A program made the translations under genes and the position numbers. From IMG/VR virus record IMGVR_UViG_3300044712_000732, positions 125,776 to 189,775 of that record: a stretch of 64,000 nt of DNA; one strand, written 5' to 3'. The stretch's first letter is position 1, and each line of letters starts with the position of its first letter. This document shows, piece after piece, positions 60,836-64,000 of this stretch. The notes under the pieces were generated by a model, which saw only the letters and a program-made list of their open reading frames with translations, ran no database searches and was not told where the DNA came from. This DNA is from a virus.

Positions 60836-60925
60836 TGCGGTGTGGAGAAGTTGGTCATCTCACCTGTCTCATAAGCACGGAGTCCCTAATAAGGTTTAAC
60901 ACAGGTTCAAATCCTGTCGCCGCTA
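60836..60925 (+). tRNA. tRNA-like, CAT anticodon loop; probable degenerate duplicate of the adjacent initiator tRNA with ~16-nt insertion in the variable region
   Basis: Acceptor TGCGGTG/CGCCGCT, D-arm GAGAagttggtcaTCTC and T-arm ACAGGttcaaatCCTGT are clear. Anticodon stem is imperfect; extra AGTCCCTAATAAGGTTTAAC. Confidence 0.35.
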
Positions 60926-60939
60926 CAAATATCAAACAT

Positions 60940-61012
60940 TGCGGGGTGGAGCAGTTGGTAGCTCGTCGGGCTCATAACCCGAAGGTCGTTGGTTCGAGTC
61001 CAACCCCCGCTA
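60940..61012 (+). tRNA. initiator tRNA-fMet (CAT)
   Basis: Near-identical to E. coli tRNA-fMet: unpaired 1:72, A11:U24, GGG/CCC in anticodon stem, loop CTCATAA, T-arm GTTGGttcgagtCCAAC. Confidence 0.85.
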
Positions 61013-61035
61013 CAAAAATAAATAAAAGTAAAACG

Positions 61036-61128
61036 ATGAAAAATTGTATGAACATATGTAATTATTGCAACATTAATATTATTAATGATGATGAACGTAT
61101 GGATTATAGTTTACATTGGATTGGATAA
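61036..61128 (+). CDS. possible tiny Cys-rich peptide (30 aa)
   Basis: MKNCMNICNYCNINIINDDERMDYSLHWIG followed by a strong terminator; may be spurious. Confidence 0.15.
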   Translation: MKNCMNICNYCNINIINDDERMDYSLHWIG

Positions 61129-61150
61129 ATTATACTTAGATGAGTAAAAA

Positions 61151-61181
61151 AGCCAATCCTTAAACAAGATTGGCTTTTTTT
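61151..61181 (+). terminator. intrinsic terminator
   Basis: AGCCAATC-9nt-GATTGGCT followed by ttttttt. Confidence 0.6.
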
Positions 61182-61227
61182 ATTAAAATTGTTCTTTGAC
61201 ATATTGGGAAATAAAATAAAATGATGT

Positions 61228-61289
61228 AATTAATCGTCCGATTATCGGATGATTGTTCAAAAAATCGGATGATTTTCGGGCGATTAATT
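61228..61289. repeat. 9-bp inverted repeat aattaatcg/cgattaatt enclosing two copies of atcggatgatt
   Basis: Direct reading; lies immediately upstream of the tRNA at 61294 and has a sigma70-like TTGACA-15-TAAAAT 30 nt further upstream (61195-61221). Confidence 0.4.
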
Positions 61290-61293
61290 AAAT

Positions 61294-61379
61294 GTTGCGG
61301 TATGCAAATGGCCTAAGCGAACAGACTTTCATTCTGTACTTCTGAAAAGAAGTTGCGGGTTCGACTCCCGTCCGCAATA
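61294..61379 (+). tRNA. tRNA with type-II (long variable arm) architecture and anticodon loop CTTTCAT (anticodon TTC, Glu-type) by hand folding
   Basis: Acceptor GTTGCGG/CCGCAAT, D-stem TGC/GCG with GG loop, anticodon stem ACAGA/TCTGT, 16-nt variable hairpin ACTTCTgaaaAGAAGT, T-arm GCGGGttcgactCCCGT, A73. Confidence 0.5.
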
Positions 61380-61388
61380 CTTTTTTAT

Positions 61389-61462
61389 GCTGCTTTCGTA
61401 TAATTGGAATAGTACCTCAGACCTCAATCTGGAAAATACGGGTTCGAGTCCCGCAGGCAGTA
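61389..61462 (+). tRNA. tRNA-like element, atypical (6-nt anticodon loop CCTCAA); possible pseudo-tRNA
   Basis: Acceptor GCTGCTT/AGGCAGT, T-loop TTCGAGT with 4-5-bp stem; D and anticodon arms suboptimal. Confidence 0.3.
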
Positions 61463-61467
61463 CATTT

Positions 61468-61539
61468 GGCGCATTCGTCTAACGGTTAGGACGTTTGGTT
61501 TTCAACCAAAAAATGGGATTTCGATTATCCCATGCGCTA
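61468..61539 (+). tRNA. tRNA-Glu (TTC)
   Basis: Canonical cloverleaf: GGCGCAT / GTCTaacggttaGGAC / TTTGGttttcaaCCAAA / GGGATttcgattATCCC / ATGCGCT; D-arm resembles bacterial tRNA-Glu. Confidence 0.75.
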
Positions 61540-61615
61540 CTAATGAATAAAGAAAACATTCAGCAAACAAAAATTGACTGCAAATCAAACAAAACCGTTT
61601 TCTGTTTCATATTTT

Positions 61616-61699
61616 GGTCTCGGGGGCTGCTTGGTGTGGCCGCCTGCCTGTCACGCAGGAACCGTAAGGATCAGGAGGGTTCGAATCCCTTCGGGACCG
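61616..61699 (+). tRNA. tRNA with Asp-type anticodon arm (CCTGC-CTGTCAC-GCAGG, GTC) but type-II-like body (3-bp D stem, ~15-nt variable region), G73
   Basis: Acceptor GGTCTCG/CGGGACC, T-arm GAGGGttcgaatCCCTT; anticodon arm identical to E. coli tRNA-Asp. Confidence 0.45.
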
Positions 61700-61709
61700 C
61701 ATTTAAATT

Positions 61710-61802
61710 GGGGTGCGTTGCTTCATGGGGTCTGTAAAACCCTTCTGCGTTAACAAAATAGAAGCTGGTGGCAGTTTTGAGGTTCAATTCCTTCGTATCC
61801 CA
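61710..61802 (+). tRNA. tRNA-like region (93 nt) with Tyr-type anticodon hairpin GGGGT-CTGTAAA-ACCCT and T-arm, but no canonical D-arm and 35 nt between anticodon and T arms
   Basis: Acceptor GGGGTGC/GTATCCC (2 GU pairs); irregular, may be a pseudogene or carry an insertion. Confidence 0.3.
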
Positions 61803-61823
61803 CAAATTGAACGCAAATTATAT

Positions 61824-62366: not shown

Positions 62367-62420
62367 TCGAAAATAACAAAAAATGACTTTATTTATTTAA
62401 TATATAGAATAAAAACTAAT

Positions 62421-63125
62421 ATGAAAAATAAATGGTCAAAAAATAACTTATTTGATGTTATTAATACATCAAATAATAAAATTGAAGTTTTAACAAAACT
62501 TAAATTAACAATATTTACGGGAAATTATGATACATTAAATAAATACATTAAAAAATATAATATAGATATATCACACTTTAAACGAAATCATAATATAGAT
62601 AATTTAAATAATTTTAAAAAAATTGATTTAAAAAATATATTAGTAGAAAATTCAACCTATAGTCGATCTAAATTAAAAGAAAGATTATATAAAGAAGGTT
62701 TAAAAGAAAGAAAATGTGAAAAATGTGGGCAAGATGAAGAATGGAATGGTGATCATATTAGTTTAATTCTAGATCACATCAATGGTATTAATGATGATAA
62801 TAGAATAGAAAATTTAAGAATACTTTGTCCAAATTGTAATGCTACATTAGACACACATTGTGGAAAAAATGTTAAAGATAAAAGCAAAACAAATATAACT
62901 ATCAAAACAAAAAATGACAAATATTGTTTATGTGGTAAGAATATAGACAAAAGATCAAAAAAATGCAAATCTTGTAATAACATAGAATTATCTATATTGC
63001 AACGTAAAGTTGAAAGACCAACATATGATACATTATTAAAAAATATTGAAGATTTTGGATATTCTGGTACAGGAAGAATATATAATGTAAGTGATAATAC
63101 AATACGAAAATGGATAAAAAAATAA
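62421..63125 (+). CDS. HNH homing endonuclease nested in the tRNA array
   Basis: CEKCGQDEEWNGDHISLILDHINGINDDNRIENLRILCPNCN (HNH motif). Start placed at MKNKWSKNN (62421) because the track's upstream extension overlaps tRNA-Tyr. Confidence 0.7.
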   Translation: MKNKWSKNNLFDVINTSNNKIEVLTKLKLTIFTGNYDTLNKYIKKYNIDISHFKRNHNIDNLNNFKKIDLKNILVENSTYSRSKLKERLYKEGLKERKCEKCGQDEEWNGDHISLILDHINGINDDNRIENLRILCPNCNATLDTHCGKNVKDKSKTNITIKTKNDKYCLCGKNIDKRSKKCKSCNNIELSILQRKVERPTYDTLLKNIEDFGYSGTGRIYNVSDNTIRKWIKK

Positions 63126-63210
63126 AGGGGGTATCGCATAGCGGCAATTGCAATTGACTGTAAATCAATCGTCTTATGGCTTCGTAGGTTCGAGTCCTAC
63201 TACCCCCACC
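63126..63210 (+). tRNA. tRNA-Tyr (GTA), type II, encoded CCA
   Basis: GGGGGTA/TACCCCC, D GCA/TGC with GG loop, anticodon ATTGA-CTGTAAA-TCAAT, 14-nt variable arm, T-arm GTAGGttcgagtCCTAC, A73 CCA; close to bacterial tRNA-Tyr. Confidence 0.8.
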
Positions 63211-63214
63211 AAAT

Positions 63215-63286
63215 TGGAAGTGTAGCTCAGAGGCAGAGCGTTTGCCCGTTAAGCAAGGGGTCGAGATTTCGAAATTCTCCATTTCC
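63215..63286 (+). tRNA. tRNA with anticodon GTT (Asn-type), C at position 33
   Basis: GGAAGTG/CATTTCC acceptor, D GCTC/GAGC, anticodon TTTGC-CCGTTAA-GCAAG, weak T-stem. Confidence 0.5.
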
Positions 63287-63290
63287 GCAA

Positions 63291-63363
63291 TGGTGTTGTA
63301 GTTCAGTGTGTAGAATAAGGCGTTGTCTGCGCCAAGGTCGTGAGTTCGAGTCTCATCAGCACC
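63291..63363 (+). tRNA. tRNA with anticodon GTC (loop TTGTCTG; U37 atypical)
   Basis: GGTGTTG/CAGCACC acceptor, D GTTC/GAAT, T-arm GTGAGttcgagtCTCAT. Confidence 0.45.
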
Positions 63364-63368
63364 GCATA

Positions 63369-63441
63369 AGGTAGTGTAGCTCAGTTGGTTAGAGCGGCGG
63401 ACTGTTAATCCGTAGGTCGGGGGATCGTAACCCTCCACTAC
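63369..63441 (+). tRNA. tRNA-Asn (GTT)
   Basis: Perfect acceptor GGTAGTG/CACTACC; anticodon arm GCGGA-CTGTTAA-TCCGT nearly identical to E. coli tRNA-Asn; T-arm GGGGGatcgtaaCCCTC. Confidence 0.8.
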
Positions 63442-63452
63442 CGCAAAATTAT

Positions 63453-63536
63453 TGCACAATTGGTCGAGTGGCTTAGGCAACGGTCTGCAAAATCGTAACG
63501 GAGAAATCCTACGGGGGTTCGAATCCCTCATTGTGC
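63453..63536 (+). tRNA. tRNA with Ser-like type-II body (D-arm GTC-gagtggcttag-GGC, 16-nt variable arm) but anticodon GCA and U73 (Cys identity elements)
   Basis: GCACAAT/ATTGTGC acceptor, anticodon ACGGT-CTGCAAA-ATCGT, T-arm GGGGGttcgaatCCCTC. Confidence 0.5.
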
Positions 63537-63580
63537 TCTTTTTAAATAAAAACAAATTCAAATTATTTATATGTTAAAAA

Positions 63581-63664
63581 TATCGTAGTGCGCAGAGTTG
63601 GTCTATTGCAGTGGGCTCATATCCCACCATCTTTGATATCGTGAGTTCGAATCTCACCTACGAT
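63581..63664 (+). tRNA. tRNA with type-II body (3-bp D stem, 13-nt variable arm) and anticodon CAT
   Basis: ATCGTAG/CTACGAT acceptor (extendable to 8 bp), anticodon GTGGG-CTCATAT-CCCAC, T-arm GTGAGttcgaatCTCAC, A73. Confidence 0.5.
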
Positions 63665-63677
63665 ACGGTAAATTTAA

Positions 63678-63754
63678 TGGGAATCTAGCTCAATTGGTCA
63701 GAGCATCTCGCTGATACCGAGAAGGTTGCAGATTCGAGTTCTGCGTTTCCCACC
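63678..63754 (+). tRNA. tRNA-Ile (GAT), encoded CCA
   Basis: Canonical type-I cloverleaf; D GCTCaattggtcaGAGC, anticodon TCTCG-CTGATAC-CGAGA, T-arm GCAGAttcgagtTCTGC, ACCA 3' end. Confidence 0.75.
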
Positions 63755-63757
63755 AAA

Positions 63758-63835
63758 TATCGGTGTATCTCAACTGGCTTATACCCAGGCATAACTGAGT
63801 AATTGGTGTATGTGGGTTCGAGTCCCACCTCCGAT
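63758..63835 (+). tRNA. tRNA-like element, anticodon hairpin CTGG-CTTATAC-CCAG (TAT?), no D-arm at canonical position, 22-nt region containing GTAATTGGTG before T-arm
   Basis: ATCGGTG/CTCCGAT acceptor (one U:U), T-arm GTGGGttcgagtCCCAC; same odd layout as 62035-62116. Confidence 0.3.
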
Positions 63836-63949
63836 ACAAATCCATTATAATAAGGCAAGTAAAAAATCTTGTAATCATAGGGTAGCGTGTCCGCAGCTAA
63901 TTGGGGATAAGTTGGTGATAATCCCAATCACGTCCTATGATGGGTTTTA

Positions 63950-64000
63950 TAGTGCTGTAGTTCAGATTGGTTAGAATACTAGACTGTCACTCTAGTGGTC
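63950..64000 (+). tRNA. tRNA-Asp (GTC), 5' part only (truncated by window end)
   Basis: GTAGTTCAGATTGGTTAGAATAC D-arm and CTAGA-CTGTCAC-TCTAG anticodon arm nearly identical to bacterial tRNA-Asp. Confidence 0.6.

Follow-up and report, generated by a model that had tools for sequence, protein, structure and literature searches.

Long-variable-arm tRNAs with Glu, Asp, Cys and Met/Ile anticodons, and apparently block-permuted tRNA-like genes, in a viral tRNA array

By textbook rule only the tRNAs for Ser, Leu, Tyr (in bacteria) and Sec carry a long variable (V) arm, and the rule is used in identity models and in annotation software alike. Among eukaryotes, the nev-tRNAs are derivatives of tRNA-Leu that are charged with Leu (PMC3333845; Hamashima 2016, as cited in PMC5389517), and as to altered segment order, a 2023 paper stated that no non-circular permutations in natural RNAs were known before its own ribozyme examples (PMC10085705). 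Here we analysed the tRNA array at positions 60836-64000 of a 64,000-nt stretch of viral DNA (IMG/VR record IMGVR_UViG_3300044712_000732, positions 125,776 to 189,775; "the window" below), with all elements described lying on the + strand. The array holds five tRNAs with V regions of 13-21 nt and the anticodons CAT, TTC, GTC, GCA and CAT, which we call long-arm tRNAs, as well as two tRNA-like genes whose internal blocks are apparently exchanged. From identity nucleotides and covariation we conclude that the five long-arm tRNAs are probably genuine phage translation tRNAs, cognately charged and bearing a V hairpin that is labile in its presence and selected in its structure.

Our detectors were ARAGORN and the Rfam tRNA covariance model RF00005 (gathering threshold 29 bits), and both called all five long-arm tRNAs. 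In the Rfam alignments model positions 1-71 were aligned in each case, the extra bases formed an insertion in the variable region, and every score exceeded the gathering threshold. A preliminary description, made from the letters of the window, had reported four long-arm elements with Glu, Asp, Cys and Met/Ile anticodons and had allowed that covariance models might fold them as type-I tRNAs or score them as pseudogenes. The agreement of ARAGORN and Rfam indicates that these elements are real, and neither a type-I fold nor a sub-threshold score was obtained; their number, however, grows to five with the addition of 60836-60925, and although the positions first given for the Glu and Asp elements hold, those of the Cys (63454) and CAT (63582) elements each move by one base.

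All five have the architecture of a type-II tRNA, in that the V region is longer than 10 nt (13-21 nt) and contains a stem-loop. The long-arm tRNA-Glu (TTC; 61294-61379/80, Rfam 48.0 bits) has 87 nt, a 17-nt V region made up of a 6-bp stem and a GAAA loop, A73, a G1-U72 pair and a 3-bp D stem. The long-arm tRNA-Asp (GTC; 61616-61699/700, 38.0 bits) has 85 nt, G73, G10, C38 and a 15-nt V region that pairs only as CC-GTAA-GG (2 bp). Likewise of 85 nt are the long-arm tRNA-Cys (GCA; 63454-63537/38, 50.0 bits), with U73 and a 16-nt V region (GGA-GAAA-TCC, 3 bp), and the long-arm CAT tRNA (elongator Met or Ile2; 63582-63665/66, 47.1 bits), with A73 and a 13-nt V region (ATC-TTT-GAT, 3 bp). The fifth (CAT; 60836-60925, 45.1 bits) is fMet-like and has 91 nt, A73, a 21-nt V region (3-bp hairpin), an acceptor beginning TGCGG in which 1:72 is mismatched, and a weak anticodon stem that contains a single mismatch. 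It departs from a bacterial initiator in that the T1/T72 mismatch is present but the anticodon stem (CCTGT/GCACG) lacks the three G:C pairs, whereas its homologue in L350 retains GGG/CCC (L-numbers such as L001, L103 and L350 denote fetched viral tRNA loci; L350 is IMGVR_UViG_3300031521_000714 and L002 is LR756504).

The five share D-loop GG, U33, a purine at 37, a TTCRANY T loop, a 7/5 acceptor/T geometry and a 5-bp anticodon stem, so that they have neither the 8/4, 9/3 or 8/5 geometry nor the 6-bp anticodon stem of allo-tRNA- or tRNA-Sec-like molecules. U8 is present in four of them, the exception being the Asp one, in which G8 stands at an unusual spacing. The combination of 3-bp D stem and long D loop at first attributed to the Glu, Asp, Cys and CAT elements together is clear in the Glu and Cys ones and not in the other two: ARAGORN prefers 4 bp in the Asp, CAT and fMet-like tRNAs, with a 3-nt spacer in the Asp and CAT ones. 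The D arms of the long-arm tRNAs recur in short-arm homologues, so the form of the D stem does not discriminate. The V sequences are mutually unrelated, as had been said, yet three of the five are capped by GNRA loops. The discriminator and anticodon nucleotides are, again as first described, of the Glu, Asp, Cys and Met/Ile type. None of the five is a Ser, Leu or Tyr isoacceptor by anticodon (TTC, GTC, GCA, CAT), nor is any closest core of Ser, Leu or Tyr type.

We compared cores with the V region removed, a comparison that is informative only above ~0.8 identity, and most cross-isotype similarities of 0.70-0.78 were treated as noise. The lineage was resolved for the Asp, Cys and fMet-like tRNAs, whose nearest relatives are ordinary same-anticodon phage tRNAs, both long- and short-armed. 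Core identity of the long-arm tRNA-Asp was 0.86 to a V=8 Asp tRNA of LR756501, a 735-kb phage, and 0.83 to a V=17 Asp tRNA of L350 (GGTA-GAAA-TACC); its homologues in L350 (V=17) and L001 (V=8) show compensatory changes. The 32 nt of D and anticodon arm in the long-arm tRNA-Cys match the 72-nt tRNA-Cys of T5-like phages at 94%, and the molecule is homologous to a V=4 Cys tRNA of LR756501, the V lengths of Cys tRNAs across four related phages being 4, 11, 14 and 16 nt. The fMet-like tRNA belongs to a family with members in L350, L029 and L075 (V stems of 5-7 bp) and is related to the T5 fMet-like tRNA. For the long-arm tRNA-Glu the closest core was a tie at 0.74 among Glu, Met, long-arm Trp and Leu tRNAs; its 3-bp D stem and AAATGG loop also occur in V=5 Glu tRNAs of L350, L317 and T5-like phages, and from its long-arm homologue (L297:382-468) it differs by double changes at 2:71, 4:69 and 27:43 and in one V-stem pair. 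The V stem of the long-arm CAT tRNA covaries among syntenic homologues (ATC/GAT in the window, GTC/GAC in L103, GTTC/GAAC in L350). RNAalifold on MAFFT alignments missed V stems of variable length, and we replaced it by per-sequence folding against shuffled controls.

A comparison with related phages, suggested at the outset for huge ones, yielded both long- and short-arm homologues, with V regions of 4, 8, 11, 14 and 16-17 nt. Because short-arm homologues share cores or D arms with the long-arm tRNAs, the arm behaves as a labile hairpin expansion that arises and vanishes inside ordinary isoacceptor lineages. The likelier origin of the long-arm tRNAs, to judge from these relatives, lies in ordinary Glu, Asp, Cys, Met/Ile and fMet-like lineages that gained a short, often GNRA-capped V hairpin. 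The preliminary reading is therefore only partly right: Ser/Leu/Tyr-type bodies carrying foreign anticodons are not supported, since the closest resolved cores are those of ordinary same-anticodon phage tRNAs. We likewise rejected a Ser ancestry of the long-arm tRNA-Cys, for which a "Ser-like" D arm had been taken as the mark, as short-arm phage tRNA-Cys genes carry the same D arm. The idea of one long-arm scaffold with many anticodons, considered for the pair of long-arm Glu and Trp tRNAs, was unsupported: the shared D-arm pattern matched L015 alone.

To see how far such tRNAs extend, we searched IMG/VR with a Cys pattern, in which a Cys anticodon loop and a T loop are set farther apart than a type-I tRNA allows, and validated the matches by ARAGORN. 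The first 120 matches contained at least 89 long-arm tRNA-Cys genes, 59 of them distinct and many on contigs of 100-500 kb, whereas a chance control of equal specificity (the anticodon-arm pattern of the long-arm tRNA-Glu) gave 10 matches in IMG/VR and 0 tRNAs. With the same Cys pattern, 14 of 120 were genuine among the matches listed from 185,579 GTDB species genomes, the rest being chance, and about half of the 14 sit in loci with ≥10 tRNAs, a density like that of phage arrays. Near the viral Cys matches, tRNAs for Asn, Met, Thr, Val, Phe, Asp, Glu, Lys, Ile, Gln, Arg, Pro and Trp also had long arms, and the Ala, Gly and His tRNAs around these IMG/VR matches showed none. In a second, independent sample (viral arrays picked by a tRNA-Tyr D-arm motif, motif-carrying tRNAs being excluded from the count), 33 of 790 tRNAs with class-I anticodons (4.2%) were long-armed. 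The fetched viral arrays hold 163 distinct long-arm tRNAs with class-I anticodons, and cultured coliphages are among the carriers: phi92 and Antha have a tRNA-Asn(GTT) of 82 nt plus CCA with the arm GAAC-GAAA-GTTC. The class is phage-wide and enriched in phages. An unusual structural class of tRNAs, one of the possibilities first raised for this phage, is thus supported by its presence in many other phages, and the original observation holds and reaches wider than had been supposed. We found no account of long-arm class-I phage tRNAs in the open-access full text searched, so that the class seems not to have been described there; earlier reports in subscription journals may exist.

Several further observations concern the same arrays. 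The converse anomaly also occurs: 32 of 109 Leu-anticodon tRNAs in viral loci L005-L124 have a V region of ≤7 nt, and short-V Leu tRNAs include the 74-nt tRNA-Leu (TAA) of T5-like phages (L125:1044-1117, phage BD13). Within a cluster of Lys tRNA genes, a long-arm tRNA-Lys (TTT, 89 nt; L002:7021-7109) has normal Lys tRNAs as neighbours, and directly downstream of it (L002:7204-8340) is a shortened, 378-residue phage LysRS homologue. Long-arm Thr-TGT genes (L024:2309-2391 and 14 other loci of the Tyr-motif sample) carry a 19-nt D arm, TCGCATAGCGGCAATTGCA, identical to that of phage tRNA-Tyr and begin with Thr-type G1-C2 at the acceptor; from this sequence they look like a shift of anticodon and identity on a Tyr scaffold. 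Lys and Asn long-arm tRNAs that share one D arm similarly resemble anticodon shifts on a long-arm scaffold. These apparent shifts (Thr, Lys and Asn) still bear acceptor or discriminator nucleotides of the new isotype.

Supporting that the long-arm tRNAs are maintained as structures, the 59 distinct long-arm Cys sequences (from the IMG/VR matches listed) form a cloverleaf in which 18 of 20 pairs show compensatory change, and the window tRNAs show compensatory changes against homologues in other viral contigs, V stems included. A V hairpin of ≥3 bp is formed by 74% of the 163 long-arm tRNAs versus 27% of shuffled sequences (79% versus 18% for genuine tRNA-Tyr), and 71 of 139 V hairpins have GNRA loops. 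Compensatory substitutions in every stem, V stems too, and GNRA-capped hairpins far in excess of the shuffled expectation are difficult to reconcile with the long-arm tRNAs being pseudogenes, that is, decaying duplicates whose arms are insertions left by turnover. That explanation starts from an array rich in homing endonucleases and quickly rearranging. In its favour, some tRNAs of the array are plainly defective (the anticodon loop at 61389 has 6 nt, the D loops at 61954 and 63292 lack GG, and the elements at 61710 and 63873 are unclassifiable), the Glu, Asp and fMet long-arm tRNAs have normal paralogues, the 60836 copy has a mismatched anticodon stem, and arm length differs among close relatives. 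Even so, the families are kept across many unrelated contigs and in cultured phages, the Cys and CAT long-arm tRNAs have no normal paralogue in the window, L350 or L103, and 96 of 147 long-arm tRNAs (65%; an upper bound, as the loci are partial) are the sole carriers of their anticodon in the fetched locus. We consider decay of the long-arm tRNAs as a class unlikely.

The discriminator base also follows the anticodon. U73 was present in 56 of 59 long-arm Cys sequences and in 15 of 17 short-arm ones; among long-arm tRNAs of other isotypes it was U in 7 of 8 for Thr, while G was found in 6 of 8 for Asn and in 4 of 5 for Asp, the discriminator was A in all long-arm Glu, Val, Met and Ile tRNAs, and Ser tRNAs had G in 51 of 63. 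U73 and GCA are the major CysRS determinants, and the tRNA at 63454-63537 and 56 of its 59 relatives carry both. The E. coli AspRS identity set comprises G73, G34-U35-C36, C38 and G10, all of which are found in 61616-61699. GluRS of E. coli recognizes UUC with A37, an augmented D helix and the absence of nucleotide 47; in the long-arm tRNA-Glu the loop CTTTCAT is present, the D stem has 3 bp and the V region 17 nt, and the D arm is shared with V=5 phage Glu tRNAs. As to tRNA-Ser identity (G73 plus long arm), only the Asp one of the window's long-arm tRNAs has G73, a base that AspRS requires as well.

Full aminoacylation identity sets and intact anticodon loops would be needless in a pure decoy, and this argues against the long-arm tRNAs being non-translational tRNA-shaped RNAs: decoys or sponges for anticodon nucleases or tRNA-binding defence proteins, processing punctuation, or regulators. 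Such roles have some precedent, in that phage tRNAs counter tRNA-cleaving defences (T5 tRNAs against PARIS and PrrC-type systems; PMC11464382 and PMC10264068) and some allo-tRNAs are charged yet unused in translation, and an arm would mark a decoy apart from a working tRNA. However, we identified no protein partner and the sole-carrier cases would be left unexplained, making a purely non-translational role quite improbable.

The preliminary description had also proposed missense-reading tRNAs. In that case the arm and A73 or G73 would allow charging by SerRS, LeuRS or TyrRS, so that Glu, Asp, Cys or Met codons would partly be read as Ser, Leu or Tyr. The long arm is the main handle of SerRS and one of those of bacterial TyrRS, while LeuRS depends mainly on A73 and core tertiary features (PMC7609411, PMC5389517 and established knowledge), and there are nematode nev-tRNAs and some allo-tRNAs as precedents; in the window the long-arm tRNA-Glu is Leu-like (6-bp arm, 3-bp D stem, A15:U48, A73), the Asp one has G73, G1:C72 and G2:C71, and even the U73 of the Cys one was considered SerRS-compatible by Mukai et al. 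Missense charging is nevertheless very improbable, since the discriminator tracks the isotype of the anticodon across the 163 phage tRNAs, cognate determinants are kept (Cys U73 and GCA; Asp G73, G10 and C38), long-arm Thr tRNAs with a Tyr-type D arm still begin with the G1-C2 that ThrRS requires, short-arm homologues stand at the same array positions, the arms are mostly 3-4 bp and so below the phage tRNA-Ser mean of 5.1 bp, and with many sole anticodon carriers missense would follow proteome-wide.

All three alternatives, missense, pseudogene and decoy, are hence less likely than functional cognate tRNAs. As functional tRNAs the long-arm molecules would be transcribed within the tightly packed array, excised by host RNase P and 3'-end processing enzymes with completion of their CCA ends, and folded into a normal L from whose core the additional arm would stand out, as it does in tRNAs for Ser, Leu and Tyr. 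Each would then be charged by the synthetase that matches its anticodon and would decode codons heavily used by the 25%-GC genome. Our best guess for the arm itself is that it would alter how host factors such as tRNA-targeting defence nucleases and modification enzymes view the tRNA, leaving synthetases and ribosome undisturbed. Lability of the arm suggests weak selection on its presence, and its consistent hairpin form suggests selection on its shape once present; by analogy, escape from host tRNA-directed nucleases is a plausible role.

Several points weigh against functional, cognately charged tRNAs with a selected arm. The 60836 copy has an anticodon-stem mismatch and a weaker V hairpin than its homologues and the V pairing of the long-arm tRNA-Asp is just 2 bp, and either could be in decay. 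That the arm is often gained and lost agrees with near-neutral drift as well as with function. In the long-arm tRNA-Glu the combination of A15:U48 and A73 is typical of tRNA-Leu, and the 17-nt arm and 3-bp D stem might impair charging, given the elements used by E. coli GluRS. Core similarities of 0.70-0.80 are close to the tRNA background, and the lineages of the Glu and CAT long-arm tRNAs depend on single homologues.

Four stretches of the array have tRNA-like ends and were not called at standard settings, and two of these, 62035-62116 and 63759-63836, are conserved in L103 and L350. The first contains an Ile (GAT) anticodon hairpin and has a 91% identical L103 homologue with compensatory changes in the acceptor stem, and the second contains an Ile (TAT, AUA-reading) anticodon hairpin. 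Both share an order of parts that defines a family. It opens with a 7-bp acceptor stem, T-A and h1, a strand of 3-4 nt; a perfect anticodon hairpin comes next, joined by a short linker to the complement of h1; and then stand TAATTGGT, a few further bases, A-T, a T arm of canonical form, the acceptor's 3' strand and A-C. The anticodon hairpin is thus nested in the D stem and the D-loop motif TAATTGGN comes after it, and the members follow the order Acc5'-TA-h1(5')-anticodon hairpin-linker-h1(3')-TAATTGGN-...-AT-T arm-Acc3' with covarying helices. In IMG/VR, 26 loci matched a 25-base pattern of this layout. Model R1, a covariance model made from 17 sequences of the family, scored 63759-63836 at 86.8 bits and 62035-62116 at 70.5 bits, against less than 25 bits for every canonical tRNA, whereas ARAGORN and the Rfam tRNA model both miss these elements. 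Model R1 also found additional members in loci fetched for other purposes, for 33 distinct members in all; members occur at L103, L350, L374-L397 and L398-L400.

RNAalifold mis-folded the permuted elements, and its fold was discarded in favour of a hand-specified structure tested by pair counts and by the covariance model. In the MAFFT alignment of the family 95.9% of cells pair (70.5% when shuffled) with a covariation of 0.65 versus 0.16, and all three h1 pairs change on both sides; in the covariance-model alignment of the 33 distinct members 98% pair, with a covariation of 0.82 versus 0.18 that was reached in 0 of 500 shuffles. The anticodons are TAT (18), GAT (11), CAT (1) and TCT (3). All Ile-type members have A73 and TGG-T, and all Arg-type members have G73 and TGG-A, in which an A follows G18G19; for ArgRS the main determinant is A20. 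At the 15-like position and the 48-like one, which directly precedes the T stem, 30 members have A/T and the other 3 have G/C, an invariable correspondence that matches the R15:Y48 Levitt pair. Read in this way, the family is apparently a tRNA in which two blocks have changed places: 10-21, made up of the D loop and the 5' strand of the D stem, and 22-47, which by the same reading holds the 3' strand of the D stem, the anticodon arm and the variable nucleotides. Known tRNA tertiary contacts suggest that the new junctions 9->22, 43->10 and 21->48 would link neighbours in the canonical fold, and the model would predict an L of canonical shape with the contacts 8-14-21, 15-48, 18-55 and 19-56.

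Permuted members were also found in phi92, rV5-like coliphages and FelixO1-like phages, and in the records checked they were unannotated or given as "tRNA-OTHER". In phi92 or rV5-like phages a permuted Arg-UCU element lies at about 51874-51952 and a long-arm tRNA-Asn at, for example, FR775895.2 52683-52767. We found no description of such a permuted tRNA in open-access full text; subscription-journal reports may exist. It is tempting to see both classes, the arm-added class-I isoacceptors and the permuted Ile (GAU, UAU, CAU) and Arg (UCU) tRNAs, as working in translation and so as a hidden phage repertoire, a proposal that we hold tentatively and somewhat short of even chances. In that proposal the permuted tRNAs would retain the contacts checked (U8, A14, R15:Y48, G18G19 and A21) together with synthetase identity nucleotides. 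That both designs serve counter-defence, by altering the surface or backbone seen by tRNA-targeting defences and modification enzymes while remaining compatible with synthetase, EF-Tu and ribosome, is a speculation that we rate as doubtful.

The remaining array is of mixed quality. ARAGORN made 16 tRNA calls, all within 60836-63755. The fMet-like long-arm tRNA is followed by a canonical initiator tRNA-fMet (CAT; 60940-61012, ARAGORN, Rfam 66.8 bits), and this Met pair is separated from the remaining array by a terminator-like, GC-containing hairpin with a T run (GCCAATC...GATTGGC; 61148-61183, direct reading), which the terminator scan did not flag as its loop is >8 nt. Beyond the long-arm tRNA-Glu are a Glu-like tRNA (61389-61462; "tRNA-???" in ARAGORN, Rfam 36.3 bits) and a canonical tRNA-Glu (TTC; 61468-61539, ARAGORN, Rfam 61.9 bits). 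The Glu-like tRNA has a 6-nt anticodon loop (CCTCAA), as does one in a related huge phage (TTTTCA; L002:4653-4728, LR756504), and both adjoin normal Glu tRNAs; such a gene could be a defective copy or an unusual decoder. In LR756504 a further tRNA-Glu-like gene (L002:4729-4915) has the acceptor GGCGTGT/ACACGCT, a normal T arm and a D loop broken by ~115-120 nt, which may be an intron, a mobile insert or a disruption.

Next to the long-arm tRNA-Asp, the element at 61710-61803 (direct reading; ARAGORN at very low threshold only) combines an acceptor stem and a T arm, the latter preceded by 28-34 nt, with a perfect anticodon-like hairpin (GTA, Tyr) and lacks a canonical D arm; it matched neither the Rfam model nor model R1 and had no homologue among the fetched loci. 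A tRNA-Asn (GTT; 61824-61896, ARAGORN, Rfam 42.4 bits) has A8 and the T loop ATCGTTA, and a tRNA-Asp (GTC; 61954-62029) with an aberrant D arm whose loop lacks GG was called by ARAGORN only, with no Rfam tRNA match at E <= 1. The first permuted element is followed by two type-II tRNA-Tyr genes (GTA) with encoded CCA (62282-62366, ARAGORN and Rfam; 63127-63211, ARAGORN, Rfam 59.1 bits) that flank an HNH homing-endonuclease open reading frame (ORF; 62421-63125, Pfam HNH, E = 4.5e-5), of which a homologue lies in the tRNA array of LR756504. A type-I triplet of Asn (GTT), Asp (GTC) and Asn (GTT) tRNAs (63216-63443, ARAGORN and Rfam) comes next; the D loop of 63292-63364 has no GG and its anticodon loop is TTGTCTG, with a pyrimidine at 37, and the T loop of 63370-63443 is ATCGTAA. 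A canonical tRNA-Ile (GAT; 63679-63755, ARAGORN, Rfam 67.9 bits) with encoded CCA precedes the second permuted element. The element at 63873-63941 (direct reading; ARAGORN mitochondrial-mode guess only) is built of a terminal helix of 7 bp (TCATAGG/CCTATGA), a 5-bp helix inside it and a hairpin with AGTTGGT in its loop, without a T arm and without an Rfam match, and the window ends in the 5' part of a tRNA-Asp (GTC; 63951-64000, Rfam 29.1 bits, 3'-truncated).

The fMet, Glu-TTC, Ile-GAT, two type-II Tyr-GTA with CCA and partial Asp-GTC genes of the preliminary description were all recovered by ARAGORN, Rfam or both, and its two Asn genes become three; the Asp set is also larger, with three complete genes and one partial. 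Over 60836-63836 most tRNAs, the permuted ones too, encode the discriminator and one C only (...AC or ...GC), full CCA being encoded only by the two Tyr tRNAs and the canonical Ile tRNA. The gene order of the array is shared with L350 and L103. Look-ups of exact proteins matched only Logan contigs of 6.6 kb and 2.4 kb from the same sample (SRR26046407). Single-protein searches for related arrays by protein synteny found none, and a promoter scan gave 20 promoters versus a shuffled expectation of 14.7 +/- 3.5, hence no excess.

The window as a whole has ~25% G+C, rising to 33-34% in the final 4 kb, and its closest DNA matches are the uncultured huge phages LR756501, LR756503 and LR756504 (636-735 kb). 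Its ORFs include a family-B DNA polymerase fragment, a helicase-methyltransferase, several homing-endonuclease-like proteins, a YqeY protein and an IMPDH-like gene interrupted by a Hint domain. In the last case (53951-56555) an IMPDH/GMP-reductase-like gene is cut into N- and C-terminal parts by a stretch that holds the Hint domain and then a 341-residue ORF, which looks like an intein or homing-endonuclease insertion. The type-II tRNA-Tyr genes and the initiator tRNA with unpaired 1:72 show that the host is bacterial.

With 163 distinct exceptions in the fetched viral arrays, or ~4% of class-I-anticodon tRNAs in the unselected sample, these phages provide a natural experiment on the uncoupling of tRNA identity from shape. 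Since each exception keeps its own isotype's discriminator (and other identity nucleotides where checked), many synthetases would appear to tolerate the arm. Phage tRNA sets are partly mis-annotated or missed ("tRNA-OTHER" or unannotated, e.g., in phi92), including those of phage types considered for therapy. AUA and AGA are the rarest E. coli codons, and because the permuted Ile and Arg elements would read them, codon-supply analyses of these phages are probably incomplete. If the permuted elements fold as proposed, theirs would be the first non-circularly permuted tRNA that we found described and they could be useful scaffolds for orthogonal translation; if the counter-defence proposal were true, both designs would serve phages as counter-defence and would offer orthogonal tRNA scaffolds of natural origin. 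Both oddities are present in cultured E. coli phages, so the claims are directly testable.

Compared with bacterial type-II tRNAs (Ser, Leu, Tyr and Sec), the long-arm tRNAs are alike in having a V stem-loop of >10 nt, often with a GNRA loop, and a 7/5 acceptor/T geometry, and the Glu and Cys ones also in their 3-bp D stem with a 10-11-nt D loop; they differ in their Glu, Asp, Cys and Met/Ile anticodons and discriminators and in cores that group with same-anticodon type-I tRNAs, and the arms of long-arm class-I tRNAs average 3.3 bp against 5.1 bp in phage tRNA-Ser. The nematode nev-tRNAs and eukaryotic V-arm tRNAs likewise combine a class-II shape with anticodons for class-I amino acids, but the phage tRNAs retain the identity nucleotides of the amino acid that their anticodon specifies. 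The allo-tRNAs and selC* tRNA-Cys (PMC5389517) are bacterial or metagenomic molecules that also bear a long V arm together with a non-Ser anticodon (selC* with U73 and GCA); their geometry is 8/4 or 9/3, their anticodon stem has 6 bp and their D arm is Sec-like, unlike the 7/5 geometry, 5-bp anticodon stems and ordinary D loops of the window. Another near counterpart is the set of type-I tRNAs of T5-like phages, which repeat D- and anticodon-arm sequences of the window (for Cys at 94% across 32 nt) and share the unusual GGGGCTG... start of Asp, the TGCGGG acceptor of the fMet-like tRNA and, in Glu, the 3-bp D stem with an AAAYTGG loop, although their V regions measure 3-6 nt and those of the window 13-21 nt. 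The permuted elements, finally, resemble tRNA genes of Cyanidioschyzon that are circularly permuted, and ribozymes with non-circular permutations (PMC10085705), in that segment order is altered and three-dimensional contacts are apparently kept; the algal genes, however, are restored to a standard tRNA via a circular intermediate, whereas in the phage elements the acceptor ends are in their normal place and it is the internal blocks 10-21 and 22-47 that are apparently swapped.

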